Shown here: in pieces, positions 16,654 to 34,042 of the stretch
How positions within the stretch are numbered: position 1 is the first letter of the stretch
Layout of the letters: every line of letters starts with the position of its first letter
NCBI GenBank assembly: GCA_023659785.1
Contig: JAGXOR010000002.1
Coordinates: 1 to 36,345 of the forward strand
Length of the DNA stretch: 36,345 bases
Direction of reading: 5' to 3'
DNA from: Methanomicrobia archaeon LH_S13
Lineage (GTDB): Archaea; Halobacteriota; Syntropharchaeia; Alkanophagales; Methanospirareceae
The notes under the pieces: generated by a model
The model's input: the letters and a program-made list of their open reading frames with translations, nothing else
Told to the model about the DNA's origin: nothing
The model's database searches: none
Translations under genes and position numbers: made by a program

Positions 16654-16725
16654 TGTTTAATTGATAAATTATATATGTATTTAATATACGGTTGAAGACC
16701 TGAGAAAAGATTTTAGGGCCATTAA

Positions 16726-16929
16726 ATGATCGTATCCAATGCGACTCCATTGATCTATCTGGCAAAACTAGGGAGGTTACACCTTCTAAAAGACTTTTTT
16801 CAAGAAGTCATCATTCCCGAGGAGGTTAAAAGGGTAGTTGTAGACAGAGGAAAAGAGCAAAATAGCGTTGATGCTTTTGTGGTTGAAGAAGCGCTAAAAG
16901 AGGGATGGATAAAAATAAAAAAGTGTTAG
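16726..16929 (+). pseudogene. Truncated PIN-like (DUF3368-type) nuclease-domain gene
   Basis: MIVSNATPLIYLAKLGRLHLLKDFFQEVIIPEEVKRVVVDRGK matches the N-terminal half of DUF3368 proteins. The ORF stops at 67 aa, before the expected LDxGE…DD segment. No antitoxin partner is present. Confidence 0.55.
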
Positions 16930-17111
16930 CCCAACATCTTACTCATGCACCCCGCTATCAGTCCACCAATGGCATCGTCCATGAAAACACCCAATCGGCT
17001 TAATATCCCTGGTTTCCTCGTATCGTAATAGAAGAAATTAAAAAGCGCCTTTTTACCACCTATATACTCCGCTATGTCAATCCCTATTAGCTCATCAGCA
17101 ACTATTCCACG
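16926..17111 (-). pseudogene. 5'-truncated PgpA-domain (CobZ-like alpha-ribazole-phosphate phosphatase) fragment
   Basis: My own translation is RGIVADELIGIDIAEYIGGKKALFNFFYYDTRKPGILSRLGVFMDDAIGGLIAGCMSKMLG*. It parallels E. coli PgpA IVWDEFIG…FRILDMWKPWPI…GIMIDDIVAG. There is no start codon and no N-terminal GTxGS region. It is in frame with cbiZ directly after that gene's TAA. Confidence 0.55.
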
Positions 17112-17774: not shown

Positions 17775-17810
17775 ACCATGCTCCTTTTATAACCACAGAT
17801 TACACAGATT

Positions 17811-18683
17811 TTAATTGTTTTGATTTTTGGATTCTTCCTTCCTCACTGAAAACCTTATATATGAAGGCAAGCCAAAGGAGGTGCAATCTCTCACCAAGAA
17901 CCCATGCTTCAAAAGCACTCTTTTCGCTTCTTTTGCTTTTCCATTCACCACATTCAGGATATAAAAATTAGCATCCTCTTCTGTGCAAACACGGTAACAC
18001 TCCAGGGAGCTTTTACTTTCCTCATCTCCCTTATGTTCTCCTCTAACGAAATCGCATATCCAAGTCTTATCCCCGGAATTGCATAAGATTTTGTCATAGA
18101 CCTTAAAATAACTAAATTTTGAGTTGAAAAAACATGCGATGGAAAAGCATTTCTTACAAAATCCACATACGCTTCGTCAATCACTAACAATGCATCAGCT
18201 CTCTCTGCTTCTTCTATTATCAGCTCCGTTTTCCTCTACAATTAGCGCAGGATATATTCGCAGACCAGGCATTTCTATTCGTTTGATTTCGGCACTAATC
18301 ATCTGCACTGCAACCCCATATTCTCCATAAGTGTGCTTCAGCATTAGCACCCTATCTTTTACAAAGGAGAGAGCTACAAGTTGTATTAGTTCAGAAACAC
18401 CAGCTCCTACTAACACTTCCTCCTCCTTGCATCCAAATCTTTTTGATATCTTCTCCCTCAATCCTTTGGATTCTGTGTCCGGATACATTTTTATTTCTGT
18501 CATCGCTTCTTTTATCGCAGTGAAAACAAAATCCGGAGGTCCATAAGGGTTTAAATTTACACTGAAGTCTATTACTCCCTTCACTTCATCTTTGTCCACT
18601 TCATCTTTACCCACTTTCCCTCCATGCTCACAAATTTCTATCCCATGTAAAGGTTTTCTTGGTTTCAATTTAGCCAGCTCCAT
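17811..18683 (-). pseudogene. cobD: L-threonine-O-3-phosphate decarboxylase (class I/II aminotransferase fold), broken into three frames
   Basis: Fragment 1 (18195..18683) has EHGGK…IDFSVNLNPYGPP…VGAGVSELI…KHTYGEYG. Fragment 2 (17954..about 18215) has [24 protein letters not shown]…[17 protein letters not shown]…APWSV. Fragment 3 (17811..about 17960) has [10 protein letters not shown]…[28 protein letters not shown]. No NPNNPTG-type segment is visible. The total is ~290 codons. Confidence 0.75.
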
Positions 18684-19597
18684 CCAGCAAAATAGAGAAT
18701 AGCCATGAGCACGATGCAGACAAAAGCGAAGAGAAAAGAGCTTATTTTTGCAATTCTTATTGATTCTCCTATATCCTCACTTCTCGCACCTTCAAAGTAT
18801 TCTCCCACGATGTACTGTCCAACCTTCTCCAGCTTCACTTTTAACGCACGGCTCATTGCCACTATTGTCAAAGGGGCAGTTTTGTTGTTCTCATAACCAC
18901 GATTTCTCAAATCCCCCTGTTTTGAACCACTCAGCAACAGGATCAATCCAGCTGCAATCTTCTCCGGTATGTAATTCATCACCTCATCGGCTTTCGCAGA
19001 GAACCAGCCAAAATGCTCGTATCTCCTGTTTTTATACCCGACAACCGCATCTAACGTATTTATCACTCGATAAACCATAGCACCAAAAACGCCGAATAAC
19101 GCGAAATATAAGAAAGGGGCTATGACGGAATCGGTCGTATTCTCAGCCACTGATTCTATGGCTGCAGAATCGAGGTGTTCCTCATCCAAATCCACTATTT
19201 CTCTACTGACTGTCTTTCCTACCGCTTCTCTCTTCTCTTCCAAGTTCCCTGCTTCCATCGTTTTTTTCCCGTATCTTTCCAATCCTTTTATTGTGAATGT
19301 CATTTTGAAAATGAGCGAGCCTAAAATAACGTATAAAAGTTCAGAATGTATAAACAGAAGCATTAAACAGGGTAAGCCAAAAATAGAGATTGTAAGCATT
19401 GCATACACCGCTCCGAGAATTTCTTCCTTTCTTACATTCCCCCTCTTCGTTATTGTATCAAACAAGCGCATTAGCCTGCTTATCCATACAATCGGGTAAT
19501 ACTTTTCCCTTCTCTCAGGGGGGTCGCCTACGGTCACGTCTATGAGTATAGCGATTATAAAAATAGCCAGATGAGCAAAAAGCAAATCTATTTGCAT
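18665..19597 (-). CDS. cbiB: Adenosylcobinamide-phosphate synthase
   Basis: A 310-aa membrane protein with LDSAAIESVAENTTDSVIAPFLYFALFG and NTLDAVVGYKN…FGWFSAKADEVMNYIP, the CbiB/CobD-membrane family pattern. It begins 2 nt after the permease stop. Confidence 0.8.
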   Translation of the reverse strand: MQIDLLFAHLAIFIIAILIDVTVGDPPERREKYYPIVWISRLMRLFDTITKRGNVRKEEILGAVYAMLTISIFGLPCLMLLFIHSELLYVILGSLIFKMTFTIKGLERYGKKTMEAGNLEEKREAVGKTVSREIVDLDEEHLDSAAIESVAENTTDSVIAPFLYFALFGVFGAMVYRVINTLDAVVGYKNRRYEHFGWFSAKADEVMNYIPEKIAAGLILLLSGSKQGDLRNRGYENNKTAPLTIVAMSRALKVKLEKVGQYIVGEYFEGARSEDIGESIRIAKISSFLFAFVCIVLMAILYFAGWSWLN

Positions 19598-19599
19598 TC

Positions 19600-20646
19600 T
19601 TACACGTAATAATGTCCTCCTTTCCTTTTCTTAAGCAGATAAATAAAGAAGGGAGCGCCGAAGAATGCAGTGATTATCCCTACTGGCATTTCGCCCAATA
19701 AACGAGCCAATGCATCTGTCCACACCAGAAAAATCCCACCTACCAAAGCAGAGGCAGGAAACAGAATTCGATGGTCTGGTCCAACTAATATCCTCGTTAT
19801 GTGTGGAATTATCAAGCCAACGAAGCCAATTGTTCCCACGAAACATACCGCAGCAGCGGTAATGAACGCCGTAAGAATCAGCAGGATTTTCTTCACATTT
19901 TCTACATTTATACCCAGTGTTTGCGCTGATTCTTCGCCGAGCAGCATTGCATTCAGATCCTTTGCAAAAAGGTAAATCAAAGAGAAGCAAACAAATATTG
20001 GTAAAATTGCTATTTCCACCTGTGCCCAGTTGGCAAGCCAGAATCCGCCCATCAACCAGAAAAAGATACCCGCCAAGTCATGACTGACTCGGTACATCAT
20101 GAAGGATAAAACAGCGCTTAAGAATAACGATACTGCTATTCCCGTAAGTAACAAAGTATCCACAGGTATTCTTCCCCCTACTCGCGCAATGCTGTAAACC
20201 AAAAAAGTGGCGAACACTGCACCCAGGAAAGCCATGAACGGAGTAGTGTAAATCGAGAAGAAATGCGGAAGTAAAGTTATCGAGAGAACAGCCCCAACAG
20301 CCGCTCCAGAGGCTATTCCTATTATGTACGGGTCTGCCATCGGGTTTTTAAATAGTCCCTGCAGCGTTGTACCTGCCGTTGCCAGTGCGAGACCGACCAA
20401 CAATCCAAGAAATATCCGCGGCAGTCTTATCTGTAAAATTATTACTTCATACTTATCTGGAATAGAAGAAGCCGCCCAGAGATGAAGTTTACTTCCTGCT
20501 AAAACGACAATGTCCAGCGGCGGTACATAAACAGGTCCGATTGCCGTTGTCAGCACGATACTCACGCCTAAAATCGCAACTAAGTAAATTATCACCATCT
20601 TCCAGTGGATAAACTTATTGAGATATGCGGTTTTTTGTTTTACCAT
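19600..20646 (-). CDS. FecCD/BtuC-family ABC transporter permease (corrinoid/iron-chelate type)
   Basis: The protein has about 9-10 transmembrane segments and the signature GTIGFVGLIIPHITRIL, plus ADPYIIGIASGAA. No ATPase gene follows it. Confidence 0.85.
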   Translation of the reverse strand: MVKQKTAYLNKFIHWKMVIIYLVAILGVSIVLTTAIGPVYVPPLDIVVLAGSKLHLWAASSIPDKYEVIILQIRLPRIFLGLLVGLALATAGTTLQGLFKNPMADPYIIGIASGAAVGAVLSITLLPHFFSIYTTPFMAFLGAVFATFLVYSIARVGGRIPVDTLLLTGIAVSLFLSAVLSFMMYRVSHDLAGIFFWLMGGFWLANWAQVEIAILPIFVCFSLIYLFAKDLNAMLLGEESAQTLGINVENVKKILLILTAFITAAAVCFVGTIGFVGLIIPHITRILVGPDHRILFPASALVGGIFLVWTDALARLLGEMPVGIITAFFGAPFFIYLLKKRKGGHYYV

Positions 20647-20995
20647 TATTGTTCTCGTTCATCTGGCAGAATATCAATAAATTTCACCTTCCTCGGCGTT
20701 TCCCGTATCTCTTTTATCTCTGAATACAATGGGTGATAGGACACCACATACAGGTGCTTCATCGCTCTCGATACCGCATCAATTAATCTGGGTCGAGCGT
20801 AGCTTCGTAACCGCCAAGATATATCCTGTACGGATTTAGCTTCTCTAATTCCTTTACTATGTTCTCAAAGTTCCAATCAATATATCTCCTCTCTTCTGCA
20901 TAGATGTCGTATTCGTTTTTTTCATAGCCGTGCTTGTATACAAAGTATAACTTTCTTCTGTTTAAGTTAAGACACGGATTTATTTTCCAGTTCAC
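20647..20995 (-). pseudogene. Radical-SAM(-activase)-like remnant, frameshifted
   Basis: ORF 20783..20995 ends …YRIYLGGYEATLDPD* (a GGEPTL-like motif). The CxxxCxxC region is degenerate (CLNLNRRKLY). The +1 frame continues LIDAVSRAMKHLYVVSYHPLY…. Confidence 0.4.
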
Positions 20996-21650
20996 CTCCT
21001 TTTATATCCAAAAACCACATCCCTTTCACATGCACTTTTTCCAGTTCACCCACCTTTATCCTTCTCTTAAATATCGGTCCGTCAACTACAAAAGTATGAT
21101 ACTCCCCTGATTCGCCGGACAGATGGAAATTGTACTTTTTCAGCTCTTCGATAAAGGATTCGTCAAATCTCCTGCCCAACCATTCTTCTTTTATTCTCGT
21201 CGCAACTACTATTGCTTCAAAGCCTTCTGCTATGAACTCCTGCACTATATCCCCTGGGTCGAGACCCCAAAGAGGGATGATTGGTTCTATTTCAAGGTCG
21301 CTGCAAACCCCCTCTATCCATTTCCGGTGCTCAATCAGGTCAATATCGCCGAAAACGCCTCCTTCCACGTCATCAAGTTTTAATTCTTTCACAGCTTCTT
21401 TGAATTTACTCTCATAGCCCTCCCATGAAGCATTCCCCTGAACTATTGGTATTCCTATGGCTTCTGATTGAAGCTTCAGTAGAAAAGGGCGAGTTCCATG
21501 TGCTCTTTCCCTCTTCCCATCCTCATCTAGCAAATTCAAGAGATGCGATACATCAAACCCGTCAAGCATTGCTTTGTAACATGCTAAACTGCTGTCCTTT
21601 CCTCCACTCCAGGAACAGAAAACGCGCTTCTTTTCTTTCACTTCTTTCAT
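20967..21650 (-). CDS. dph6: PP-loop ATPase of the diphthine-ammonia ligase (Dph6/MJ0570) family
   Basis: VFCSWSGGKDSSLACYKA, FGDIDLIEHRKWIE and GESGEYHTFVVDGPIF are present. The protein is 227 aa. The start overlaps the stop of the binding-protein gene (ATGA). Confidence 0.75.
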   Translation of the reverse strand: MKEVKEKKRVFCSWSGGKDSSLACYKAMLDGFDVSHLLNLLDEDGKRERAHGTRPFLLKLQSEAIGIPIVQGNASWEGYESKFKEAVKELKLDDVEGGVFGDIDLIEHRKWIEGVCSDLEIEPIIPLWGLDPGDIVQEFIAEGFEAIVVATRIKEEWLGRRFDESFIEELKKYNFHLSGESGEYHTFVVDGPIFKRRIKVGELEKVHVKGMWFLDIKGGELENKSVS

Positions 21651-23155
21651 TTGTTTTTTAGACTGTTTTTTCTCAAAAGATACGTTACCGCCAGCAATCC
21701 AACAACCGCTAACACCGTTTCAAATCCTGGTGTTTCTACATTCAACTCTGTTTCTGCTGTGTCACTTATGCTATCTGCCATTGCTGTAACTTTCGCTTTG
21801 TATGTTGCAGGAGGTGCATTCTCTGGAATTGTAGGATGAATGGTATGGTTTATGGGAGGCTCTAAACCTTCTGTGGGAATAGAGTGATTATAATGCTTGC
21901 TAATCCCCATTGCTCCTACCTCTACTTTTGCTTGTATATCCCCATTCCATGTTACAGGAGCCCAATTAGCTGTAATTGTGTATTCTATAGTATCTCCTGG
22001 TTTAGCTGTTACAGTCTTTGGATTAATATCCACGGATAGAGATTGTAGTGTAGGGGTTGGTGTTGTAGCGGGAGTTGGTGTTGGTGCTGCAGTGGATAGA
22101 GGTGTTGGTGTTACAGTAGGCTCTGATGTTGGACTTGGTGTTGCTGTCGGTGTCGGACTTGTAGTAGTAATAGCAGGAGAAGGAGTGGCAGTAGGCACTT
22201 CGTCAGTAACATTGAAAAATTCAGATAGATTCCCATAAACAGTTTCCGTGGCGTTCACTATCCTCGGACCTGCTCGGGAGATAACATCCGCATCTATGGC
22301 ATAAACCCTATCATTTTTGACTGCTTTCACCACTTTCAGCCTCTCCTCACTTAGTATATATTTATAAGGCTCCGTTCCCGCTGCTCCATGCCCCACTGAG
22401 ACAATTATCACATCAGGATTCCGGTCTATGAACTCCTCCAGACTTACCGTGTGCCAATCTTTAATGTCAGAAAAGGCATTCTCTCCTCCTGCTATCTTTA
22501 TCAATTCATTTTGCACTGTGCCCCCGCCTGCAACCCAGATAGGGTCGTGCCAGGTAACCTGAGCAACTGTTGGTCTTTTTACATCCCTCGTTTTGTTTTT
22601 AATCTCTTCCATCCTTTGAGTCATATTTGCGACTAAAGCAGTGGCATTCGTCTCTTCCCCCGTTATTCTACCCACCAGCATTATATCGTCCATTATTTCA
22701 CTGATGTTTACAGGATTCAAGCCTACAACCGTTATGTTCAGCTCTTCTAACCTTCCAAAAGTTTCTTCTCCGTTCAACTCATCCCCAAGAACAAGGTCAG
22801 GGTCTAAGGCTACTACCTTTTCTATGCTCACCGTAGAAACACCGCCAACCACGGGCTTCTCTTCTGCCTCTTCTGGATAATTGCAGTATTCGGTTACGCC
22901 AACGACCCTATTGCCAGCGCCGATGGCAAACAATATTTCCGTATTGGTTGGCGATAACGAGATAATTCTTGCCGGTATCTCCTCAATGGTTACATTTCTA
23001 CCGAAGTCGTCGGTTATTGTGAGCCCCTGCGTTTCTGCCCTTACCGGTATTTGTAAAGAAGAGAAAGCGGTTGTAGCTGTTAAAACAATTGTTAGCGCTG
23101 CGATTATAGCTATCCATTTCTTCATTTCTTCATTCTTTATCTTTATTTTTATCAT
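21647..23155 (-). CDS. BtuF/FhuD-type (Peripla_BP_2) substrate-binding protein with Pro/Thr linker, Ig-like domain and PGF-CTERM anchor
   Basis: The binding domain shows ITDDFGRNVTIEEIPARIISLSPTNTEILFAIGAGNRVVGVTEYCNYP…ALDPDLVLG. The PT-rich linker is TATPSPAITTTSPTPTATPSPTSEPTVTPTP… (about nt 22045-22192). The terminal ETPGFETVLAVVGLLAVTYLLRKNSLKNK is an archaeosortase-type PGF-CTERM. An alternative start is MKKWIAII at 23125. Confidence 0.85.
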   Translation of the reverse strand: MIKIKIKNEEMKKWIAIIAALTIVLTATTAFSSLQIPVRAETQGLTITDDFGRNVTIEEIPARIISLSPTNTEILFAIGAGNRVVGVTEYCNYPEEAEEKPVVGGVSTVSIEKVVALDPDLVLGDELNGEETFGRLEELNITVVGLNPVNISEIMDDIMLVGRITGEETNATALVANMTQRMEEIKNKTRDVKRPTVAQVTWHDPIWVAGGGTVQNELIKIAGGENAFSDIKDWHTVSLEEFIDRNPDVIIVSVGHGAAGTEPYKYILSEERLKVVKAVKNDRVYAIDADVISRAGPRIVNATETVYGNLSEFFNVTDEVPTATPSPAITTTSPTPTATPSPTSEPTVTPTPLSTAAPTPTPATTPTPTLQSLSVDINPKTVTAKPGDTIEYTITANWAPVTWNGDIQAKVEVGAMGISKHYNHSIPTEGLEPPINHTIHPTIPENAPPATYKAKVTAMADSISDTAETELNVETPGFETVLAVVGLLAVTYLLRKNSLKNK

Positions 23156-23156
23156 T

Positions 23157-23513
23157 TTATTTTACACCCTCCGTCATGTTTGATGGCACATATATCATCC
23201 CACCACCTCCTGTTTTATATATCCTTCCCACTTCACCCACAATTTCCTCCTGCACCGTCTCGTTCATCATATCCAGCTTTTCGATTCGTTCACCGCTTTT
23301 CACTATCACTTCCATGTTCTGCTGCCCCGGATTTTTGACAATGGTCATATCCGTCTGTGTTAAAACTTCGGGCATGCTGAGATACAGTAGCAGCATCACC
23401 ATCAACCCAAGCGCAAACACCATCGCCACGTCGAACAGATTTGCAACGCCTGATAGTGGGTCATCGTCGTCGTCTCCTTCTCTTCTTTTTCCTTTCCTAT
23501 TCATGTATTTCAT
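23157..23513 (-). CDS. ExbD/TolR-like single-pass protein (archaeal DUF2149 type)
   Basis: An acidic N-terminus (GDDDDDPLSG) is followed by one transmembrane helix (VANLFDVAMVFALGLMVMLLLYL) and a small extracytoplasmic domain. The start overlaps the ExbB-like stop. Confidence 0.65.
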   Translation of the reverse strand: MKYMNRKGKRREGDDDDDPLSGVANLFDVAMVFALGLMVMLLLYLSMPEVLTQTDMTIVKNPGQQNMEVIVKSGERIEKLDMMNETVQEEIVGEVGRIYKTGGGGMIYVPSNMTEGVK

Positions 23514-24214
23514 CTTCTTTCTTCACCTCCGAAGAGCACTTCACAAATGTATTTTATATCGTTCATGTCATCGTTATACCATCGCCTTCTCATCGTATAA
23601 ACGATGTATGAAACGGCACCGATGAGCAACCCTACGACTGTGGTGCCAAATGCAATGATTAAATTGTTTGCAAGCGTATCCACATCGCCCCTCGTAAGTG
23701 CTAATAATGCAGGACCCATCGGTATCAGCGTTCCCATAAGCCCGAACATCGGACCAAGTCTGACCATCACCTTTGTTCGTTCAAGCCGCTTTGTGATGAA
23801 TGAATCGCATTTCTGCAGTAACTTCTCAAGATTTATTGAAAACATGTCCGGATTTTGAGATGTTTTCTCCTCTTTTTTGTCTTTAAGCGCTAAAAGACCG
23901 TCTAAAAAGAGATGTATAAACCGCTTCTTTAAGGTGCATTCCATGAGAATGCTGATTCCTTCATCAAATTTGCCTTTATCTATCAGCGTCTTTGTTTCAA
24001 GCACGCTTTTCTCAAGGTCTTTCGGTTTATTATCTCCTATCTTTAATTTTAATCTACCAGCTCTCGCAAGCCCTTCACATGAGAACATACCGATTTCAAT
24101 AACAATAAACGCAGTCATACCGAGCAATATGATAATTACAGGATATAGTAACGATGTCGAGACGAGGTATATCGCAGATTGAAGAATATATGGCAGATTC
24201 AGGCTAAGAATCAT
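23510..24214 (-). CDS. MotA/TolQ/ExbB-family proton-channel protein
   Basis: The core is RLGPMFGLMGTLIPMGPALLAL…LANNLIIAFGTTVVGLLIGAVSYIVY (MotA_ExbB). An N-terminal transmembrane helix and a cytoplasmic helical insert are also present. The start overlaps the upstream stop (ATGA). Confidence 0.85.
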   Translation of the reverse strand: MILSLNLPYILQSAIYLVSTSLLYPVIIILLGMTAFIVIEIGMFSCEGLARAGRLKLKIGDNKPKDLEKSVLETKTLIDKGKFDEGISILMECTLKKRFIHLFLDGLLALKDKKEEKTSQNPDMFSINLEKLLQKCDSFITKRLERTKVMVRLGPMFGLMGTLIPMGPALLALTRGDVDTLANNLIIAFGTTVVGLLIGAVSYIVYTMRRRWYNDDMNDIKYICEVLFGGEERR

Positions 24215-27200
24215 CTTTTGCCCCTCCTATAAGCCCTCTTCTCTTTGCAATATCCGAAATAGAAAAGAGCTAATGCTAATACTATGAGTGCTATAATAAA
24301 CAAATGCAGCTTTTCTCCACTGCCTGATGCGCCAGAAGTGGCGTTTCCAAATGGGAATCCCGAAACTTCTTCCTTTTTATCGCTCGCAGATTTGCTTTCA
24401 TTTATTTGCGTTTGCGTTCCCCCTACCCCTACTCCTGTTCCGATTCCTGTTTCATTGGTTCCCTCTTCGTGTCCTTCACTTATCCAGTCTTCTCCTGAGT
24501 CTGAGCCACCACCACCCCTTGACCCGCCTATCCATCTTTTAGGCTCTTTTTCCTCCTCTTTCTCATATACTTTAACCTCCTTTGATATAACATTGTTTTC
24601 TTCATTTTTCTCTTCTATTTCATCTCCTGGGTCAATTTCCGCCTTTAGAATGAATTCCCCAGTTTTCTCTGGCATCCACGTGAATTCTGCACTTCCATTC
24701 TCAGCCGGATTTATCTTATCAATGAGCTTACTACCTATCTCGTTAATATCCGCTTTTAGTATAACGAGAACGCCATTTTCTTCCGTTTTCCCGATGTTCT
24801 TCACAATCACGGTTATAATATTTCCACTGTTTGCATAGATTTTATCCGCTGTTTTTATTTCAGCAGGCTTTAAATCTGGCTTCTCATATACTTCAACATC
24901 ACTGAACGCCTTATTATTGAGTGGATTCTCTTCGGTTATATTATCCCCCGAGTCAACTTCTGCAACAAGCCTGCAAGTCCCAACATCTTCCTGCCTTGCC
25001 GTCCATTTGAAACTTATCGTCTTCCCTTCACTTACATTTAGATACGAAATTGTTTCTATTCCGACATCCTCTCCATTCGCCCTCAATTCAACATTGAAAC
25101 TCTCGTTCACATCTCCATCACCGATATTCTTCACCGTAACGTTCACAAGCACATTTTCACCAACATAAACCCTTTCTGGCGCATCAAAAGAAGAAATATT
25201 CAAGTCAGGAGCATATGAAGAGCCGAAGCACCATACTTTGTCCTGCCCAATGGTATAAACCCTTCCGTTGGCAATAACAGCAGTCGAGCCACCGAAGGAT
25301 GAATTCCATATCTCTTCTCCAGTCAAGGCATTCAGGCAGTATGTGCCATCAGCTGCAAAAGCATCTCCTCCCTCCCCTATATTTCCGACAATCAGTTTAC
25401 CATCGCTCGAAACCACGGGTGAAGCTGTCCATCCACCTATATCAACTTTCCATATCTCATCGCCATTTTCGGGATTGAGGCAATAAGTTGCGATGTCAGA
25501 ATAACCTATGCAGCCACCACTGATATACATGTTTCCATAAGCATAAGCAGGCGTCGAATCTGTCCTTATCCCTCTTTTCTTCCATTTTACATCTCCATCC
25601 GCAGGATACATCGCATAATAGGTTGCATCTCCATCGAAATTGAATGTTCCAAAGTATAATATTCCGTGTATCGGTGTTATCGAGCCCCAGACGCCGTAAT
25701 CTGTTATATTATACCATTTTCTGGTCCCGTTTTTGTATAAGCAATAAATAGATCCGTGTGCTCCAGAACCAGAAGAGCCGATAGTGCAGGACCCGAAGCC
25801 AACAAAGACTTTTCCTTCATAAAAAGCAGGAGTAGCAGTGGCACGTGGATTTGTCATATTTGCTATTTCCCGCGCATCCGTCTCATTGAATACCCATAGA
25901 GTAGTCCCATTTTCTTCATCCAGGCAGTAATACTCCGGGTCGCTATCTGCTCCTCCATATCCACCAATAAATACTTTCCCAGATGCAATTGTGGGGCATG
26001 AGTTCGCCACCTTCTTTGGTAGAGTTGTAATCCACTCCTTTTCACCGCTTCCTGCATCTATCGCTGATATTTCTTTCCCAGAACCTATGAACACCTTTCC
26101 ATCGTGATAAGCCGGGGAAGACCATGAACCATCATACCTTTTATCCAATTCCCTATTCCATATGAATTTGCCATCACTTTCGTTAAGTGCGACCAAAAAC
26201 GTTCCCGATTCATTTTCACAATAAACAAAAACCTTTCCCCCTGCAACTATCAGCTGAGACGAATCAACCGCTCCTATATCTGTTGTGTTCCACGCAATCG
26301 CGTTTGTATCCGGAGCTTCGGAGAGAGAGAATCCTGCATTGTAATGGAATTGCGGTGCCTCTTTATGTGATTCTTTATTGCATATTGTAAAAGGCTCTAC
26401 GGTGGTATCAGAATCAGTAAAATTCCCATCGCTTGCTTCTACCATCAACATATATTCACCATCTGGCATGTCTTTTATATACCACGAGTGGCATCCATCA
26501 TTATCCTCATCCACCGCTATTTTTATCCAGCTCCTTCCATGATCTGGGCTGTAACTTATGCTTATATTCAAAAGATCGCCGTCGAGGTCTGTTGCATTCC
26601 ATTTCACATCGATGTAATCGGGATTAATGAAAGTTTCTCCACCTCTCGGATTTATAAGCTTTATCTCAGGTGCTCCAGCGATTACTTCAATATCTGCATA
26701 CCTCAAGTTGTTTGTTTCGTTCTCTTCGTAAACATTATTATCCGCATCTGCTACCACAAATACACTGTAAAAACCCTTTTCAATAGGAATCCACGAAAAG
26801 CTAACATTTTCCACACCAAAAATCCTTTGTATCTTCTTCTTTTCAATTAAAAATACCGAACTATCATTTGTTAAGTTGGTCAAACTCGTAAAATTCTCTT
26901 TATCCTTGTGATGATAAGCATATAAAGACACGTTGAAACTCTCTCCTGCTCCTTTTAGAGATACATTTATCAAATTGCTTTTATTCACTAACAGGAATTT
27001 ATTCTTGAAAGAAGCATTATTGGCAGGTGGCAGAAAAGTGATATTGGACGGGATAAGGTCTGGCAATGTCACATTTATTTCCCCAATCCCTGTATTGTTC
27101 TCCTCATCTGATTCTTTTACATCATCATCACAGTCAATATTGACCTTGGGGCTATAACTCCCTTTAAATTCGGGGTTCCAGGTAAAGTTCACAAGTTTCT

Positions 27201-29115
27201 CACCATAGCAAGTGATGTTCGTGAGATTATCCGTAAAGGATTTGCTATCAGTGATGTTATTTCTGAACTCTATGAGGATAGAGGAATTAAAATTCTCGCC
27301 AAATCCTTTTATCTCCACAGGCAGTTCATTTGAGAAGTTAGAATAGAAAGTTTTATTCTCGTTTAAACTTAAATTCGGATATAAGTCCGGTAATATTACC
27401 ATTATTCCCTTCTTAATCGTGTTGTTTACTTCATTCTCCTCTTCTATCTCCTCTTTTGTGTCCGCGGATATGGTGAGATTATGTTTCCCTGTATGAATAG
27501 GTTTCCACTCGAATTTTACTTCCGTATCTGCATTGCTACACTTTTCTATTACCCTTCTCTCCTGCAAAGCCTCGCCATCTTCAATAAAAGAGACATTGAA
27601 AGCGCCTCCATTGTTTCTTATCCTTGCAATCACATCGCTTTTGACATTTGCGTATGCGGTATCATTTAATGTTCCGTTTTCATTCTCTCCTTTTGGTCTT
27701 ACAGTAAAATCGAGGGGATAAATATCGGGTAAAGTTCTGTTTAATAATATCTGGTGAAAAGGCGGGAAGTATTCGCCATAAAGGGCGATGAGGGCATAAG
27801 AAGTGGCTCTTATACGATCATAATCGTTGAAGTAACCTTCTTCAGTTTGAACTTTTAGCAGGTAATCAGTGGCATTCTTTATGCTATCTTTATTTTCAGA
27901 CCGATTATACGCTAACAGAGCGGATAATGCGAGAGCTGTGGGGATAGGTCTGCCTTCTTCTCCCCCCTCATAAGGGAAACTACCCCGCTCATACTGATTG
28001 CTTTTCACAAATTCTATTGCTTTTCTGATAGATGCATTTTCCGAGCTGATGAGTCCAGTGGATAAAATCGCTTGTATAGCAAGGGATGTGTCAACAACTG
28101 AACTCCCTCCGTGGAAGCTCCATCTTCCATCTATTTCTTGCTTCTCCATCAAATTCGCAACCGTCTGATTAACTATTTTAGTTTTTCCTTCTCCTGATGC
28201 TGATAATGCGAGGAGAGCAAAGCAGTCGTCATCCGATCTCTCCTCATAGCCGATTTGTTCACTGTCAAAGAAGGAATTAAGCGAACCAATGAAGTTAATA
28301 TTGGAAAAATTTCTCGGATTTTCACCCGAGGATGCGATTGCGTGGGTTGCGCTTGCCCAATCGGTAGCATCATTGGAATTTATCATTTGAGTGCAATTAT
28401 TCTTAAGGTAATTGATGAGGTCTTGATCTGGCTCCTCATACAATGATATCGAAGTGATAGCGAGGCATGAAGAATAGAAGTTATTAATCTTCCCCTCTTC
28501 ATCCTTTTCATTTTTTAGATATGCTAAAGCTTTGTCGGTTGCATCTTTTATCTTCACACTGTAATTAAAATCGTATAGTTTCTGATGAGTAGTGATATTT
28601 AAGGTCACATTGTTGTTCTCTTTATTCTCCTCCTCTATCTTTCCATCCAGGTCTATTTTAAATATCAGTGAGACATTTTGCGATAGGTTTGTGAAATTAT
28701 ATCTGGTGTAGATGATTCTTTTACCTTTTTCAGGGATAGGTGATAACGTTAAATTAAGCACATCGAGGCAAGATGATTCGTTTTTTGTCTGATTTTCAGA
28801 GATATTTTCTGCTCTTAACGAGACATTGAAATCGCCTGAGAAGCTACCTCCTTCGTTTTTTATGCTGATGATTATCGGGTTATCTTCTGTAGCGTAAATT
28901 ACCGCAGGAATGGTTATTCTTTCTACAAGTAAATCCGGTAAAGAGGTATTGGTATTGGTATTGGTAGCGTTAAATTGTTCTTGCTTCCCACTCGCATAAG
29001 AAGGATATGCGAGAGAAGATAAGATTAAAAAGAGGAAAAAAATAAGGAATAGTGCTTGTGCTTGGGCTTGCAATGATTTACTGGCGCTCTTTTTATCTCT
29101 GCACATATTTACCAT
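24211..29115 (-). CDS. Giant membrane-anchored surface protein: signal peptide, CARDB-like repeats, alpha/alpha-toroid (prenyltransferase/terpene-cyclase-like) domain, BNR/Asp-box Ig domain, PQQ-like beta-propeller, CARDB repeats, Gly-rich linker, C-terminal TM anchor
   Basis: The likely start is the ATG at 29113-29115, overlapping the upstream stop (ATGGTAA), or the ATG at 29106. The signal peptide is LFLIFFLFLILSSLAYPSYASG. The CARDB pattern (V/I-x-N-x-G…E-x-N-E-x-NN) recurs at least 7 times. Toroid repeats include EIDGRWSFHGG, YERGSFPYEGG and TEEGYFND, at about nt 27770-28560. The Asp-box is YSPDHGRSW. The propeller repeats (GKVFVY…G.F.W, GKVFIGS…GEKEW, and so on) lie at about nt 25190-26330. 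The C-terminus is LFIIALIVLALALFYFGYCKEKRAYRRGKR. Confidence 0.8.
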   Translation of the reverse strand: MVNMCRDKKSASKSLQAQAQALFLIFFLFLILSSLAYPSYASGKQEQFNATNTNTNTSLPDLLVERITIPAVIYATEDNPIIISIKNEGGSFSGDFNVSLRAENISENQTKNESSCLDVLNLTLSPIPEKGKRIIYTRYNFTNLSQNVSLIFKIDLDGKIEEENKENNNVTLNITTHQKLYDFNYSVKIKDATDKALAYLKNEKDEEGKINNFYSSCLAITSISLYEEPDQDLINYLKNNCTQMINSNDATDWASATHAIASSGENPRNFSNINFIGSLNSFFDSEQIGYEERSDDDCFALLALSASGEGKTKIVNQTVANLMEKQEIDGRWSFHGGSSVVDTSLAIQAILSTGLISSENASIRKAIEFVKSNQYERGSFPYEGGEEGRPIPTALALSALLAYNRSENKDSIKNATDYLLKVQTEEGYFNDYDRIRATSYALIALYGEYFPPFHQILLNRTLPDIYPLDFTVRPKGENENGTLNDTAYANVKSDVIARIRNNGGAFNVSFIEDGEALQERRVIEKCSNADTEVKFEWKPIHTGKHNLTISADTKEEIEEENEVNNTIKKGIMVILPDLYPNLSLNENKTFYSNFSNELPVEIKGFGENFNSSILIEFRNNITDSKSFTDNLTNITCYGEKLVNFTWNPEFKGSYSPKVNIDCDDDVKESDEENNTGIGEINVTLPDLIPSNITFLPPANNASFKNKFLLVNKSNLINVSLKGAGESFNVSLYAYHHKDKENFTSLTNLTNDSSVFLIEKKKIQRIFGVENVSFSWIPIEKGFYSVFVVADADNNVYEENETNNLRYADIEVIAGAPEIKLINPRGGETFINPDYIDVKWNATDLDGDLLNISISYSPDHGRSWIKIAVDEDNDGCHSWYIKDMPDGEYMLMVEASDGNFTDSDTTVEPFTICNKESHKEAPQFHYNAGFSLSEAPDTNAIAWNTTDIGAVDSSQLIVAGGKVFVYCENESGTFLVALNESDGKFIWNRELDKRYDGSWSSPAYHDGKVFIGSGKEISAIDAGSGEKEWITTLPKKVANSCPTIASGKVFIGGYGGADSDPEYYCLDEENGTTLWVFNETDAREIANMTNPRATATPAFYEGKVFVGFGSCTIGSSGSGAHGSIYCLYKNGTRKWYNITDYGVWGSITPIHGILYFGTFNFDGDATYYAMYPADGDVKWKKRGIRTDSTPAYAYGNMYISGGCIGYSDIATYCLNPENGDEIWKVDIGGWTASPVVSSDGKLIVGNIGEGGDAFAADGTYCLNALTGEEIWNSSFGGSTAVIANGRVYTIGQDKVWCFGSSYAPDLNISSFDAPERVYVGENVLVNVTVKNIGDGDVNESFNVELRANGEDVGIETISYLNVSEGKTISFKWTARQEDVGTCRLVAEVDSGDNITEENPLNNKAFSDVEVYEKPDLKPAEIKTADKIYANSGNIITVIVKNIGKTEENGVLVILKADINEIGSKLIDKINPAENGSAEFTWMPEKTGEFILKAEIDPGDEIEEKNEENNVISKEVKVYEKEEEKEPKRWIGGSRGGGGSDSGEDWISEGHEEGTNETGIGTGVGVGGTQTQINESKSASDKKEEVSGFPFGNATSGASGSGEKLHLFIIALIVLALALFYFGYCKEKRAYRRGKR

Positions 29116-31913
29116 AATCTGATAGCAGGAATCCAGTTGTTGTAGACTTTTCTGTTTGCGTCGATGAATTGATTGCAAGTAATTGTTCCCCCAGTTGCAT
29201 TAAATGAGCTTTTGTGAATTATCTGAGGATAGGACCCTGTGCGGATGGTGTAGTTATAAACCACGCCTTCTTTCAATGTCAAAGTCCTGTTAAATGAGAT
29301 ATTGTGGTAGTCGCCCTGATAGCCGCTCCAGTTGGCAACTGCGCAATCGCCTGTCGTCTCATTCCATACCCTTGCGAATTCAGTATGCCCGCCGGTTCCG
29401 GAGCATGGATAAGTGTAAAGCTTGGACACAGTAATCGTTTGATTTGGCGTGATTGTTCCGTTATGCGTACCGAAGATGCTTGGGTATGGATTGTCAGGTG
29501 TGCCAGTATCAAATTGCAACATTTCCTTTTCCTCGAATGCATAAACCTTCCCATCACTGCCAATGCTCACAACTATACCTTCAGAAACCGATGGTGATGA
29601 ACCTGCATTATCATAGGACCAGGCTAACGTTCCTTTTGTTGAATTATATACGCAGATTCCACTCGCACTCGCACCCCGGATTCCAACCTTTCCTATGAAG
29701 AGCTTACCGTCTGCAACCGCTGGTGACATTGTCCAGCTTCCGCAAGGGGCATCCCAATGAAGCGTGCCTGTTGAATTAAAGCAGTATGTTGTTCCGGGTG
29801 CATTAACGCTTCCAGATACATAGATGTAATCGCCTGAGATTGCCGGTGTTGAATTGGTGTAGGTTATTTCTGCACTCCAAAGTAGTTCTCCCGTATCGAG
29901 TGCAAATGCAAAGAGCTTGCCAGTATCACTCCCATAATCAACACAAGTCGCGACATATACCCTGTTATTAGCCTCATCAATTGCAGCAGAACCCCAGATA
30001 CTGCCATTAACCGGTGTTGACCAGATTAAGTCTCCGGTTGACATATCAACACAATATAAATTGGCATTCCCACTCCAAACTGACTCACCGAAGACGACTT
30101 TGTTATCAGCAACTGCAGGAACTGAGTTTGCCCCTCCTGCAACAGTATAGTTCCAGACCACTGTGTTCAGATCATCCTCATCAAATGCGTAGTAATGCCC
30201 CTCGGAACCACTACCAGCAAAGACCATTCCATCAGCAACCGTTGGACCACCATTGCACGAGTATCCACCATCTGGGAATGCAATCTCCTGTAACTTTGCT
30301 CCAGTCGTTGCATTGAGCTTCGTTAGGTTATATCCTGCACTCACAAAGAGCATATCATCTTTATATACAGGCGATGCCCATGAGCCCCAGTCCTTTGTAT
30401 CACCTGGAATCGAGGTATTCCATAGAATTACACCAGAAGATTTATTCAACGCTACTACATGGTCATTCCCATAAACAAATACTTTATCCTCCACGATCAT
30501 CGCCTGCGACGACGCAACTGCACCGATATCGCCACTTATCCATTTTGTCTGGTTCGTATCAGGTGCGTTAGCAGGTGAATTACCGGTATTTGCTACATCA
30601 TAATGGAATTGCTCCCAATCCGTGGTGAGTTCCTTCACAGGTCCTACTTCTTTCAATCCGTAAACATAGCCGCCATCATTGCCGAAATATACATATCCAT
30701 CGGATATTGCCACACCTTGCAGGATATATCCACCAGAAGCCCCAGCTTCTTCTGTGGTGAAGTTCCACATCTCGTTTCCGTTTTCATCCACGCAGTAAGC
30801 CCTGCCATTTTCACAGTTCGTTGTGAAGTATAGATATGGCTTTCCATCTTGTATGCTTATCGCAGGAGATGCCTTCACTCCTCCATTTGGCTCAAAGCTC
30901 CATTCCTCTTCTCCATCCGAAGCATTTAAACAGTATAATTTACCTTCCGTAGCAAATGACCCATATCCAACATATACTCTTCCTCCATACACGACGGGCG
31001 TGCTATCTGAATATCCTATTTCATGAACCCATCCTTCTTCTGTAAATCCACCCCTGCTTTCATTAAATCCTGTTTTCCATACATACCCACCTTCAGATGT
31101 AAAGTAAGCAAATCCTTCGCTATAAGCCACAGAAGACTTGATACTACCAGCATCACTCTTGTTGAAGGAAATACTCCCACCATCTGTTATGTTTATTTCA
31201 TCTACTTTGGTCCCATTATCCTTATAAACGCTTGTCAAGACCGAATCACCGTCTCCATAAACGAGATAATTGTCAATCACACATGCTCCAGTCCAATAGT
31301 ATCCTTTTCCAGTATCTGACGGGCTGCTCCATAAGACATCCCCGCTAGAAGCATCCAAGCAGTAATATATACCTGTCGCATTTTCCCCGTTTTCGCTCTT
31401 ATACGAGCCTACATAGACATTTCCATCAGCATAGGTTACAGGCGTGTTTAATAGGTCATTAGTCGCCGCTATGTTATTAGTCCATAGCGTAGTTCCATCC
31501 TGAGGGTCCAATGCATAAATATGCCCGTCCTTCGTTGCGAAGAACACCTTTCCCTCGCCATACGCGGGTGTCGCCAACTGATATTGCCAACCTTCAGAGC
31601 TTAGCGATTTGTTCCATATCTCCTCACCTTTCTTCGCATCAAGTGCCCATGCACATCCCTTCGCATCTATCACAAATACTTTCCCCTCCGCCATGATTGG
31701 TGCCACATCTACGCCTGCCATCCCGGTAGATGTGGTGAACATCTTCCATGCTTTCGTCGCGTTGAGAGGAGCTAAATCGGTTGTCTTTCCTGTATTCACC
31801 TCATCCTTCTGGAATTGTTCCCAGGAACTCGCCATTGCTAACGCCGGTACGGCTATTAACAAAATACTGGCTAATAGCAGTGCGCAAACACACACACTTC
31901 CACTTCTTTTCAT
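29109..31913 (-). CDS. Secreted double PQQ-like beta-propeller protein with a conserved C-terminal beta-sandwich-like domain
   Basis: The best start is the ATG at 31911-31913, 6 nt after ggagtg. The track ORF begins at the GTG at 31922. The signal peptide is SVCVCALLLASILLIAVPALA. Two sets of propeller blades begin after WEQFQKD and WEQFHYD. The C-terminal domain is YPSIFGTHNGTITPNQTITVSKLYTYPCSGTGGHTEF…SYPQIIHK…NNWIPAIRLW, which I recall from Methanosarcinales surface proteins. Confidence 0.8.
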   Translation of the reverse strand: MKRSGSVCVCALLLASILLIAVPALAMASSWEQFQKDEVNTGKTTDLAPLNATKAWKMFTTSTGMAGVDVAPIMAEGKVFVIDAKGCAWALDAKKGEEIWNKSLSSEGWQYQLATPAYGEGKVFFATKDGHIYALDPQDGTTLWTNNIAATNDLLNTPVTYADGNVYVGSYKSENGENATGIYYCLDASSGDVLWSSPSDTGKGYYWTGACVIDNYLVYGDGDSVLTSVYKDNGTKVDEINITDGGSISFNKSDAGSIKSSVAYSEGFAYFTSEGGYVWKTGFNESRGGFTEEGWVHEIGYSDSTPVVYGGRVYVGYGSFATEGKLYCLNASDGEEEWSFEPNGGVKASPAISIQDGKPYLYFTTNCENGRAYCVDENGNEMWNFTTEEAGASGGYILQGVAISDGYVYFGNDGGYVYGLKEVGPVKELTTDWEQFHYDVANTGNSPANAPDTNQTKWISGDIGAVASSQAMIVEDKVFVYGNDHVVALNKSSGVILWNTSIPGDTKDWGSWASPVYKDDMLFVSAGYNLTKLNATTGAKLQEIAFPDGGYSCNGGPTVADGMVFAGSGSEGHYYAFDEDDLNTVVWNYTVAGGANSVPAVADNKVVFGESVWSGNANLYCVDMSTGDLIWSTPVNGSIWGSAAIDEANNRVYVATCVDYGSDTGKLFAFALDTGELLWSAEITYTNSTPAISGDYIYVSGSVNAPGTTYCFNSTGTLHWDAPCGSWTMSPAVADGKLFIGKVGIRGASASGICVYNSTKGTLAWSYDNAGSSPSVSEGIVVSIGSDGKVYAFEEKEMLQFDTGTPDNPYPSIFGTHNGTITPNQTITVSKLYTYPCSGTGGHTEFARVWNETTGDCAVANWSGYQGDYHNISFNRTLTLKEGVVYNYTIRTGSYPQIIHKSSFNATGGTITCNQFIDANRKVYNNWIPAIRLW

Positions 31914-31954
31914 TTTTTTCACTCCATTTTTATTGAGACCAGGTAGCAGGTTAG

Positions 31955-32022
31955 ACGTATATAAGGCTTTCTATTTTTAAATTTTTGGTAACAGTTGTAA
32001 CCCAAATGGGTAACAATAACCC
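31955..32022 (-). promoter_or_regulatory. Putative operon promoter (TATA boxes) preceded by clustered GTTAC/GTTAT direct repeats
   Basis: Read on the minus strand: GGGTTATTGTTACCCATTTGGGTTACAACTGTTACC-AAAAATTTAAAAATAG-AAAGCCTTATATACG, then ~35 nt to the RBS and ATG. There are four GTTAY pentamers within 35 nt. Confidence 0.35.
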
Positions 32023-32101: not shown

Positions 32102-32305
32102 CTAAAACAGTCCCTCGTCCTTTTCATAACCTCGATTCAATCGCAGTGCAAGCTCGGCATTTTTCAATTCGATACTCAAATACGATGCATGCTCAAGCAT
32201 TGAAACCATATCCAAACGTAAGATTGTATCCATTACCCCCTTTGCCGTTTCCCCTACTATTCGCTTCCCGGTAGGCAAATGTTCCGCATATATTTTTCTA
32301 CAACC
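32102..32305 (-). pseudogene. C-terminal fragment of a DUF4346-type domain
   Basis: …KIYAEHLPTGKRIVGETAKGVMDTILRLDMVSMLEHASYLSIELKNAELALRLNRGYEKDEGLF* carries the xxHAxYLGxELxKAExAL…Y.QD pattern I associate with DUF4346. There is no N-terminal part, and it is fused to PQQ debris. Confidence 0.4.
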
Positions 32306-33790
32306 GGAGAAGAGCCGCCGTGCTCTGAGTGCCATGTAACAGTACCGCAGACATTCTTGAATGGTGCCAATGCTGTATTCCATATCTCTTTTCCACCCCA
32401 TGCATCCACACAGTACGCCCTCTCCTCATCCGAATAAGCAGTGCCGAAGTATGTGTTGCCGTAGCCGATCGCGGGCACGGATTGAGAATTTCCGGATACT
32501 GTAAAGTTCCATATCTCGATCCCATTTTGTTTATCTATGCAGTAGTAGCGGCATCCATCCCAGTCCCCGGCATAGACCGCTCTGCTTGTAACCGCGGGAC
32601 CACCGTTAACAGAACCTTTACCCCCGGGAATCTAAAATCCCATTCTTTCTCGCCGTCATCTGCATCTATGCGATAAACGTGGCTGCCACCTCCCGTTGAA
32701 CCACCAGAAGTTACAAAGACGCTATCATCCTTATAGGCTGGCGTTGCCCATAAGCCATACACTCGCGTTTTTATTGGCGTTCCCCCACAATATCTCTCCA
32801 TCCGAGTTATCCAGTGCAACAAGATATGTGTAATCAGAGTACTTTCCCTGCCCTCCAGTACAATATACAAATATCTTTAATGATACTCTAGAGGATTATT
32901 GCCGTTCTTAGTGTAGGTTAAGGGATCTTTCCCGGCAACAACGATCGCCTGAATCGCAGATGAGGTTGTCAGCACACCTAAAAATCCACCGTCATCCCCT
33001 TGTTTGCTTTTAAGATAGTCCAGTGCATCTTTTATCGTATCCGAATCTTTATCCTCTCCAGCAGCAACAAGTGCTTGAATCACATGCGAAGTTGTTTGAA
33101 CATCGCTCTCGCTACGACCCCATCCATCCTCCATCATCACAATTTTGTTTCGATTTTATGTAATCTGTTGCATTTATAATCATGTTATCGGTTGTTTGGT
33201 CTTTATCTCCACAGGATACGAGTGCAAGTATTGCATCATCCTTCAGGTCAAACAGGTCTTCAGGGACGCTAAACTGCTCGCCATCATAGTAGGATTTGAG
33301 CATTACGAGATAATTCACATCGCCATAATTCGTAGGGTCGTCTCCAGTCGCACTTATAACTATGACCATCCGTGCAAAGTCCTCAACGCTGCTGAGGCAG
33401 GGCGGGTTTGACCCGGGAGGAGCGTATATCACCTCATTCATTGGCTTGTTTCGCAGGTAGTCAATAATAGAATAATTGTAAGGCGTCCATCTCCCGGTTG
33501 AAGGATTCTCCCCCGCTGCTATCATATCAGCCGAGTGCAGCCCAGCCAGAGTTGGAGAATCCACTTATGCTACTCGTGGGAAGCAGTGATTTATTCGTGC
33601 TCAAAAGTCTAATGCGCGATCTAACTCGTCAGAATAGTTGTAGTAAGAGGTGACAGCACTAACGTCAACCTCAAGCTCGTTGTTTTTATAGCTTGCCTCC
33701 CTTATCTCATCTACTGGCTTTAGTTCGACCTTCAATTTATAATTATCTACCTTTGTAGTTTGTAGGCATCCATTCAAATCTTACAACCTG
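32257..33790 (-). pseudogene. Decayed paralogue of the giant surface protein (CARDB, then alpha/alpha-toroid repeats, then PQQ blades) with multiple frameshifts and stops
   Basis: The CARDB tail is FEWMPTNYKG / DNYKLKVELKPVDEIREASYKNNELEVDV. The toroid repeats are KQNCDDGGWMGS, MEDGWGRSESDVQTTSHVIQALVAAG and KQGDDGGFLG. The PQQ blades are WATPAYKDDSVFVTSGG…YRIDADDGEKEW and NTYFGTAYSDEERAYCVDAWGGKEIWN. These are spread over at least 5 ORF pieces in different frames. Confidence 0.75.
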
Positions 33791-33995: not shown

Positions 33996-34042
33996 CTAAT
34001 ACATTTACCAATGTATATTCTTTATAAAACCAGGAATTGAAA

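Follow-up and report, generated by a model that had tools for sequence, protein, structure and literature searches.

Introduction

Motors of the 5:2 type (MotAB, ExbBD, TolQR, GldLM and ZorAB) are known mainly from bacteria, mostly diderms, where they send energy past the cytoplasmic membrane. Here we analyse a 36,345-nucleotide (nt) stretch of DNA from Methanomicrobia archaeon LH_S13 (contig JAGXOR010000002.1, positions 1 to 36,345 of the forward strand; the whole stretch is called the window below), in which an ExbB-like protein and a DUF2149 protein are encoded between the gene of a giant surface protein and that of a BtuF-like binding protein. The window belongs to ANME-1 (ANME, anaerobic methanotrophic archaea), as its proteins group at 90% identity with entries called 'Methanophagales archaeon' and 'ANME-1 cluster archaeon'. 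We propose, with a probability that we put at roughly 50%, that ANME-1 (Methanophagales) uses the operon at this locus to scavenge corrinoids at its surface with an ion-driven motor.

The TonB-ExbB-ExbD/BtuB system resembles this locus in combining an ExbB-fold subunit, in which the two channel threonines are present, with a partner that crosses the membrane once and has an aspartate there and with a third protein that reaches outward on one transmembrane helix, and in its tie to B12 uptake and a BtuF/BtuC importer. It differs in that no outer membrane is known for ANME-1 and that neither TonB nor a TonB-dependent receptor is encoded in the window, among whose scanned open reading frames (ORFs) no TonB_C, Plug or TonB_dep_Rec domain was found. 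Moreover, the candidate force recipient here is a type-I protein of 1634 amino acids (aa) with a C-terminal helix running out-to-in, whereas the TonB helix is N-terminal and runs in-to-out, and the place of the B subunit is taken by DUF2149, for which no homology to ExbD is detectable. Bacteroides BtuG is a surface B12 binder, to which the beta-propeller surface protein found here is only analogous.

The HmuT-HmuU-HmuV triad (DUF2162, MotA/ExbB and DUF2149) of the hmu heme operons of Bacteroidota has the identical ExbB-like and DUF2149 families in the same order and a link to tetrapyrroles, and triads beside CobN-like genes in methanogens are its equivalents, with the same families, order and link to tetrapyrrole acquisition. 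The role of HmuTUV is still described as unclear (PMC12583661). Unlike these triads, the window operon contains neither DUF2162 nor CobN: the gene directly upstream of its ExbB-like gene encodes the giant, whose tail holds the DUF2162 position.

In the archaeal DUF71-B12/BtuFCD/CbiZ clusters for cobinamide salvage described by de Crécy-Lagard et al. (2012), as in the window, genes for BtuF, BtuC, DUF71-B12 (motif ExGE[FY]H), CbiB and CbiZ are adjacent; the ExbB/DUF2149 motor and the giant surface proteins were not reported there, and BtuD is absent here. Transcobalamin and intrinsic factor combine an alpha6-alpha6 toroid with a beta domain, DUF4430, located in the C-terminal part of transcobalamin proteins (PMC4350170). 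The giant likewise contains a toroid, and DUF4430 occurs on partner proteins in relatives; unlike transcobalamin, however, the toroid is nearer to squalene-hopene cyclase/TED repeats, the two halves lie on different proteins, and the window itself has no DUF4430. What is already known, then, is the association of BtuF, BtuC, DUF71-B12 and CbiZ, published in 2012, and the ExbB/DUF2149 pair, annotated in hmu operons; our literature search found no description of an archaeal pairing of motor and giant, of the tail module or of the link to corrinoid salvage.

Layout of the operon

Six consecutive minus-strand genes span positions 20967-31922. They are given here in reading order, with the candidate promoter and the tail of the giant:

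31957-31990, minus strand: candidate archaeal promoter, read from the sequence (BRE (TFB recognition element)/TATA-like CCAAAAATTTAAAAATAG and a second TATA-like element, CTTATATAC)
29109-31922, minus strand: secreted 937-aa protein with two PQQ_2/BamB-like beta-propeller regions (Pfam PQQ_2 7.8e-59, six stretches)
24211-29115, minus strand: giant 1634-aa surface protein (Pfam CARDB 2.2e-66 in six stretches, PQQ_2 9.3e-24, SQHop_cyclase_C/TED/Prenyltrans)
24214-24363, minus strand: tail module of the giant, proposed motor-coupling element (GFPFGN, an SG-rich stretch, a transmembrane helix and LFYFGYCKEKRAYRRGKR)
23510-24214, minus strand: ExbB/TolQ-type motor A subunit, 234 aa, three transmembrane helices (Pfam MotA_ExbB)
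23157-23513, minus strand: DUF2149 protein, 118 aa, putative analogue of the ExbD/TolR-like B subunit (Pfam DUF2149 1.2e-24)
21647-23155, minus strand: BtuF-like class III substrate-binding protein, 502 aa (Pfam Peripla_BP_2 4e-41, PGF-CTERM 8.8e-9)
20967-21650, minus strand: PP-loop ATP pyrophosphatase of the DUF71-B12 subgroup, 227 aa (PF01902 1.1e-56)

Coupling between these genes was read from the ORF table and the junction sequences. The genes of the propeller protein and the giant are joined by ATGGTAA (29109-29115), while ATGA joins the giant to the ExbB-like gene (24211-24214), the latter to DUF2149 (23510-23513) and the BtuF-like gene to the PP-loop gene (21647-21650); between DUF2149 and the BtuF-like gene there is 1 nt (position 23156), and GGAGG-type Shine-Dalgarno motifs stand ahead of three internal starts. 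An earlier note on this DNA had claimed translational coupling of all six genes, and its ORFs and all five junctions are exactly as it described; its domain calls, too, all hold in Pfam. The candidate promoter elements lie ~45-65 nt 5' of the start codon of the first gene, for which the ATG at 31913, with GGAGTG ahead of it, appears more likely than the GTG at 31922. An Rfam search of the window gave no match of any kind, and hence no cobalamin riboswitch.

The putative motor subunits

The 234-aa protein scores 44.5 bits against MotA/TolQ/ExbB (PF01618; Pfam cut-off 22.9), in a match that spans transmembrane helices 2-3. Its AlphaFold 2 (AF2) model, built on a 69-sequence alignment and with a predicted local distance difference test score (pLDDT) of 83.5, has the three-helix transmembrane fold and the long cytoplasmic helical domain of ExbB and TolQ. 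When this model was compared with the PDB in Foldseek, ranks 1-45 were all ExbB, TolQ or PomA, with near full-length alignments and moderate statistics (E about 1e-3, template modelling score about 0.5, probability 1.00 for most). Against PDB sequences, a broad family profile (A6) retrieved E. coli ExbB at E=6e-4, then TolQ, PomA and MotA, and a narrow profile of the ExbB clade (A1) retrieved no motor proteins. In the alignment of the broad profile with 5sv0_B, GLMGT162 pairs with GLFGT148 and TT192VVGL with AT181AIGL. T162 and T192 of the window protein are invariant in 43 sequences and are aligned with T148 and T181, the channel-lining threonines of E. coli ExbB. The earlier note had made its motor reading depend on conserved channel residues, and both are kept.

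The only Pfam family of the 118-aa protein is DUF2149. A charged N-terminus is followed by one transmembrane helix and a ~70-aa beta-rich extracellular domain; P19, N25, L26 and D28 are invariant, and D28, in the transmembrane part, sits inside DPLSGVANLFDVAMVFA. The protein has the features expected of ExbD and TolR, namely a single N-terminal transmembrane helix with an acidic residue and a gene right after that of the A subunit, and the DUF2149 gene directly follows the ExbB-like gene in 81/89 sampled loci. We treat DUF2149 as an ExbD analogue on the strength of its topology, key residue and gene position, homology with ExbD being undetected. By analogy with the known systems, the two proteins would form an ion-driven motor of the 5:2 type in the cytoplasmic membrane. 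A Zorya or other MotAB-based anti-phage defence system was also considered and was rejected, the six operon proteins having zero PADLOC matches.

The giant, its propeller partner and its tail

The giant begins with a signal sequence, CARDB, an alpha/alpha toroid (aa ~177-460), CARDB-like repeats and Big_7, and continues with an 8-blade-type PQQ propeller (aa ~930-1300), two CARDB domains, a Gly/Ser/Thr-rich stalk and the conserved tail. The toroid is kept in relatives; a word-indexed homologue search with this domain returned one protein. The 937-aa protein encoded upstream has a signal-peptide-like N-terminus and is without a membrane anchor. Its C-terminal ~130 aa (29109-29520, minus strand; containing PSIFGTHNGTITPNQTITVSKLYTYPCSGTGGHTEF) form a conserved-looking domain that matches no Pfam family even at E<=1, and in relatives, DUF4430 is often present as well on the homologues encoded ahead of the giant.

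The tail of the window giant consists of GFPFGN…GGGG, a transmembrane helix and FYFGYYKEKR, and the consensus among giants is G[FY]P[FM]G, a Gly-rich stretch, a helix and (L)FY(F/L)GY(Y/H)KE(K/R)R. This tail is common to giants whose ectodomains are unrelated, be they PQQ/toroid, beta-helix/NosD (loci L003, L011 and L013) or CARDB/DUF3344 (L036). Searching 5340 ORFs in the fetched loci for the motif gave 20 matches, every one inside an ExbB cluster, a specificity that applies within these loci, which had been gathered via ExbB. All but one of these genes (19/20) are directly upstream of the ExbB-like gene, and most overlap or abut its start, whereas about 200 nt separate the two genes in L011 and L013. 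Among 1.84 billion representative proteins the tail found 16 matches only, 14 of them at the extreme C-terminus.

The gene abutting the start of the ExbB-like gene encodes, in almost every sampled locus, a protein with a transmembrane helix and a short basic tail at its C-terminus, and elsewhere the last helix of DUF2162 (HmuT-like) occupies the gene position of the giant's tail. On the simplest reading, the tail would be the element by which the motor engages its cargo, replacing the DUF2162 of the ancestral arrangement. The earlier note had offered either the anchored giant or the binding protein as the recipient of force; because the giant bears the conserved motor-specific tail, it is the likely recipient, and BtuF is not favoured.

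Conservation and gene context in relatives

ANME-1 preserves the gene order, and GoM-Arc1, ANME-2 and Methanothrix preserve it in part, in a sample to which a scan of one genome per species contributed 80 further loci. The core order of PQQ/toroid giant, ExbB, DUF2149, BtuF, DUF71-B12, radical SAM (S-adenosylmethionine) protein and BtuC recurs in L001, L006, L008, L009, L010, L014 and L016. In the first four of these, one or more PQQ proteins precede the giant and the binding protein is a BtuF with PGF-CTERM, and in one case CbiB and CobD stand at the end. The 4-nt overlap of the giant and ExbB genes recurs in independent contigs, at 46-84% identity between their ExbB-like proteins and that of the window, and this repetition of order and overlap suggests more than chance. 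The ExbB/DUF2149 pair is repeatedly found beside giant surface proteins and BtuF-type binding proteins in ANME-1 and other archaea, a recurrent linkage on which the interpretation in the earlier note had hung.

The giant-linked ExbB proteins form one clade of a neighbour-joining tree drawn without support values. This clade comprises ANME-1, GoM-Arc1 (Argoarchaeum), ANME-2, Syntrophoarchaeum and Alkanophaga, and is nested among archaeal ExbB-like proteins that follow DUF2162. Outside it, the canonical unit is DUF2162-ExbB-DUF2149, often followed by a CobN-like chelatase, in a Desulfobacterales genome by a TonB-dependent receptor and in two bacteria by a BtuF-CbiZ fusion; in the bacterial locus L054, a TonB-dependent receptor comes after DUF2149. 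Methanothrix has separate genes for toroid, DUF4430, BtuF and PQQ proteins, and these adjoin a DUF2162 triad. The motor probably derives from an HmuTUV-like DUF2162-ExbB-DUF2149 triad, and it is generic, in that it also adjoins beta-helix giants without B12 genes nearby.

Two variants were seen beside these arrangements. In L052 (Syntrophobacterales) and L063 (a metagenome-assembled genome of Proteobacteria), the triad is followed by a BtuF-like/CbiZ fusion protein of 660-690 aa. A sister clade of ExbB-like proteins (L023, L024, L027, L032 and L035) carries a ~200-aa C-terminal extension, for a total of 407-452 aa, and in L023, L024 and L035 the extended ExbB and DUF2149 are followed by a protein of 510-524 aa, which in L024 is a DUF11/CARDB/BatD-like surface protein (Pfam). 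This sister clade appears to represent a different wiring of motor to surface protein in ANME-2/ANME-3 and GoM-Arc1.

The breadth of these contexts bears on an alternative that we regard as rather unlikely, though it deserves a hearing, namely that the motor serves the giants themselves, in export, insertion, positioning, movement or envelope upkeep, in the manner of Tol-Pal or of gliding adhesins, and that the B12 genes are mere neighbours of one type of cargo. The same motor clade and tail stand beside beta-helix/NosD and CARDB/DUF3344 giants without BtuF or BtuC (L003, L011, L013 and L036), the sister clade pairs its motor with DUF11/CARDB surface proteins, and DUF3344 surface proteins follow the triads of Methanobrevibacter, all of which such a service would explain. 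The PQQ/toroid giants, on the other hand, show a specific and recurring connection to B12 genes, in many cases through codons that overlap, and canonical DUF2162 triads also accompany CobN, BtuF-CbiZ and TonB-dependent receptors. BtuF comes after PQQ/toroid giants in seven loci, and CobQ comes after DUF2149 in Argoarchaeum. As beta-helix giants beside the same motor have no B12 genes nearby, it is the type of cargo, rather than the motor, that appears to track the B12 genes.

Corrinoid genes and the ligand

A gene block for cobamide salvage and assembly (16072-19597, minus strand) lies downstream of the operon, beyond the gene of a permease:

19600-20646, minus strand: BtuC-like FecCD permease, 348 aa (Pfam FecCD 1.1e-90)
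18665-19597, minus strand: CbiB (Pfam CobD_Cbib 8.6e-66)
18195-18683, minus strand: CobD-like aminotransferase, 162 aa, truncated (Aminotran_1_2)
17112-17774, minus strand: CbiZ (Pfam CbiZ 1.5e-39)
16072-16653, minus strand: CobS, 193 aa, with partial Pfam coverage, apparently truncated (Pfam CobS 1.1e-32)

In the BtuF-like protein, the binding domain is followed by a Thr/Pro-rich linker, an immunoglobulin (Ig)-like domain and the PGF-CTERM lipid-anchor signal. Its best NCBIfam models are peripla_PGF_1 and BtuF, both under their equivalog cut-offs (BtuF 119.7 vs 234), and that of the permease is archaeal-type BtuC, at 355 bits against a cut-off of 461; B12 models are ranked first for both components. 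The representative of the 90%-identity cluster of the BtuF-like protein has 362 aa as against 502 aa here, and the extra ~140 aa correspond to the linker and Ig-like domain before PGF-CTERM.

The subgroup of DUF71 proteins assigned to B12 salvage is told from true Dph6 by the motif ENGE[F/Y]H in place of EGG[E/D]xE, and clusters with btuCDF and cbiB (PMC3541065). The PP-loop protein carries SGGKDS and ESGEYH, the latter being the published motif with one substitution (N to S), and scores 133.5 with Dph6_archaeal, under the cut-off of 197.3. Its gene overlaps the BtuF gene and adjoins the BtuC and CbiB genes, as is the case in the DUF71-B12 subgroup, and the ESGEYH-type motif is confined to BtuF-linked PP-loop copies. 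The protein is, to judge from these motifs and neighbours, a paralogue of Dph6 and not Dph6 itself, with a predicted function in salvage. Because ESGEYH fits the DUF71-B12 subgroup, the BtuF/BtuC/PP-loop part of the locus belongs to a known kind of corrinoid salvage cluster. PP-loop genes near the beta-helix loci L004 and L036 were considered as a further link to B12 and set aside: they carry the Dph6-type EGGE[FL]E, and are probably unrelated housekeeping genes.

Taken together with the giant's neighbours in relatives, these assignments make a corrinoid the most likely ligand. The earlier note had left a choice between a corrinoid and a metal chelate, of which the former is favoured by DUF71-B12 and the neighbouring B12 genes, and a generic metal chelate is not. 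We consider it quite improbable that a different tetrapyrrole or metal chelate is captured instead, for example heme, a precursor of F430 or a complex of nickel or cobalt. The motor family does appear as HmuU/HmuV in Bacteroidota heme operons and adjoins CobN-like chelatases of unknown function in methanogens, the BtuF and BtuC scores fall under the B12 cut-offs, and F420-0 and heme binding-protein models also score in NCBIfam. The adjacent genes, however, are corrinoid-specific, among them CbiZ, CbiB, CobS, the DUF71-B12 motif, CobQ and BtuF-CbiZ fusions, and the best models for both transport components are those for B12.

Missing from the cluster is BtuD. No pair of ABC signature and Walker A motifs was found anywhere in the 36 kb of the window or in the 10 kb to either side of the clusters in L001, L006, L008, L009, L010, L014 and L016, and the BtuD gene may lie elsewhere in the genome. 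This gap would suit a very unlikely arrangement in which ExbB/DUF2149 energises transport at the cytoplasmic membrane directly, either in the role of 'predicted transporter' given to DUF2162 or in place of BtuD at BtuC, without pulling on a surface protein; the polytopic membrane protein DUF2162 always abuts the ExbB-like gene in canonical triads, which would fit as well. Yet to our knowledge BtuC-type permeases occur only with nucleotide-binding subunits, whose gene may be distant; L001 has an ABC_tran gene starting about 6 kb downstream, and the motor is also found without any BtuC.

The weakest alternative, a null already disfavoured, is that the genes have no functional link and were brought together by chance through operon compaction or block transfer, a view that could appeal to the frequency of 4-nt overlaps in prokaryotic operons and to recent horizontal spread within ANME-1 as the source of part of the conservation, but which is scarcely tenable given that the order persists down to 46% ExbB identity and across orders, that the tail co-varies with the presence of the motor and not with the ectodomain, and that Methanothrix encodes the same parts as separate genes beside a DUF2162 triad.

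Proposed mechanism

Comparative and structural evidence both support the interpretation of the earlier note, an energised machine for capture and uptake at the surface, and we propose that it works as follows. The secreted double-propeller protein and the anchored giant, whose long stalk bears the toroid, the propeller and CARDB domains, would form an extracellular capture layer in which both may bind corrinoids. The motor would grip the giant via its C-terminal transmembrane tail, and its work, presumably coupled to ion flow, would travel up the stalk and either force the release of tightly bound ligand or move the ligand inward. The ligand would then be handed to the lipid-anchored, long-linker BtuF and on to BtuC, and in the cytoplasm DUF71-B12, CbiZ, CbiB and CobS would remodel it into the cell's own cobamide. 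The rationale for a motor is that very tight extracellular binders need an input of energy for ligand release. In addition, ANME-1 and Methanothrix have been reported as sheathed, and a barrier outside the membrane may exist.

Several observations weigh against this scheme. On the side of the motor, a 20-sequence profile of DUF2149 retrieved no ExbD, TolR or MotB from the PDB even at E<=10, and the AF2 model of DUF2149 is of low confidence (pLDDT 60.3, predicted template modelling score 0.25). As for the tail, its helix is oriented out-to-in, the reverse of TonB and TolA; an hhalign comparison with the last DUF2162 helix, in which the conserved Gly-aromatic pair is in register, reaches a probability of 56% and is only suggestive; and both the scope of the tail search and the lack of support values in the ExbB tree count here as well. 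On the side of the ligand, the missing BtuD is joined by the absence of DUF4430 from the window, unlike the clusters of relatives, Methanothrix included, where it is frequent on partner proteins. The window does not hold the combination of a Cobalamin_bind alpha-toroid and a DUF4430 beta domain that marks a transcobalamin-like binder: Cobalamin_bind on the giant stays under its Pfam threshold (19.5 bits vs a cut-off of 25), and a profile search with the toroid retrieved squalene-hopene cyclase and TED structures, transcobalamin being absent from the matches.

The locus suggests an energised nutrient-capture machine in a cell for which no outer membrane is known. More tentatively, and at less than even odds, archaea without a known outer membrane may have their own counterpart of the Ton system, in which an ExbB/DUF2149 motor takes interchangeable giants by their tails and performs mechanical work outside the membrane, here by stripping or relaying corrinoids that are bound very tightly at the ANME-1 envelope. 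If so, a conserved archaeal motor wired to giant surface proteins would extend the 5:2 principle to archaea, and the tail module would be a new coupling element. A role that can be put to the test would also follow for DUF2149, for DUF2162 and for HmuTUV, whose genes in gut Bacteroidota are unexplained, and it would become clear how uncultured archaea that oxidise methane and alkanes compete for cobamides, on which their one-carbon metabolism depends heavily.

Gene remnants and neighbouring genes

The 'intergenic' gap of 320 nt between the PP-loop and BtuC genes is filled by a remnant:

20658-20923, minus strand: small radical-SAM gene remnant, internally deleted and frameshifted (tblastn against intact 255-aa homologues in L008 and L018)

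It matches only residues 35-80 and 213-255 of those homologues (tblastn), and L006 and L009 have a comparably shortened version of 131-132 aa. A decayed second giant gene (32299-33759, minus strand) immediately precedes the operon. It matches the toroid (residues 964-1240) and the propeller (residues 1995-2305) of the L001 giant, a protein of 2670 aa, at 48-53% identity (tblastn), and the matches are broken by frameshifts and a large internal deletion. On the plus strand, 13944-16100 contains a ribbon-helix-helix (NikR/CopG-like) gene, a fragment made of a DUF2162 end and an ExbB-like loop (14544-15050) and family-less ORFs, and looks like a degraded canonical DUF2162-ExbB-DUF2149 locus. The ORFs at 15061-16100 had been considered as a second ExbB/DUF2149 pair; they are gene debris beside the DUF2162/ExbB fragment. 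In L009, CobD is split, similar to the truncated CobD-like gene of the window. The truncated CobS and CobD-like genes and the other remnants suggest either real gene decay in the lineage or frameshifts in the assembly.

Further from the operon, the regions 2997-8410 (plus strand) and 11212-12943 (minus strand) hold an ectoine cluster and a pair of genes for MetF-type methylenetetrahydrofolate reductase. The ectoine cluster encodes ectoine synthase together with a GNAT-aminotransferase fusion, an AsnB-like amidotransferase and an unknown protein of 493 aa. A gene for a B12-binding radical-SAM protein is located at 34037-35821 on the plus strand.

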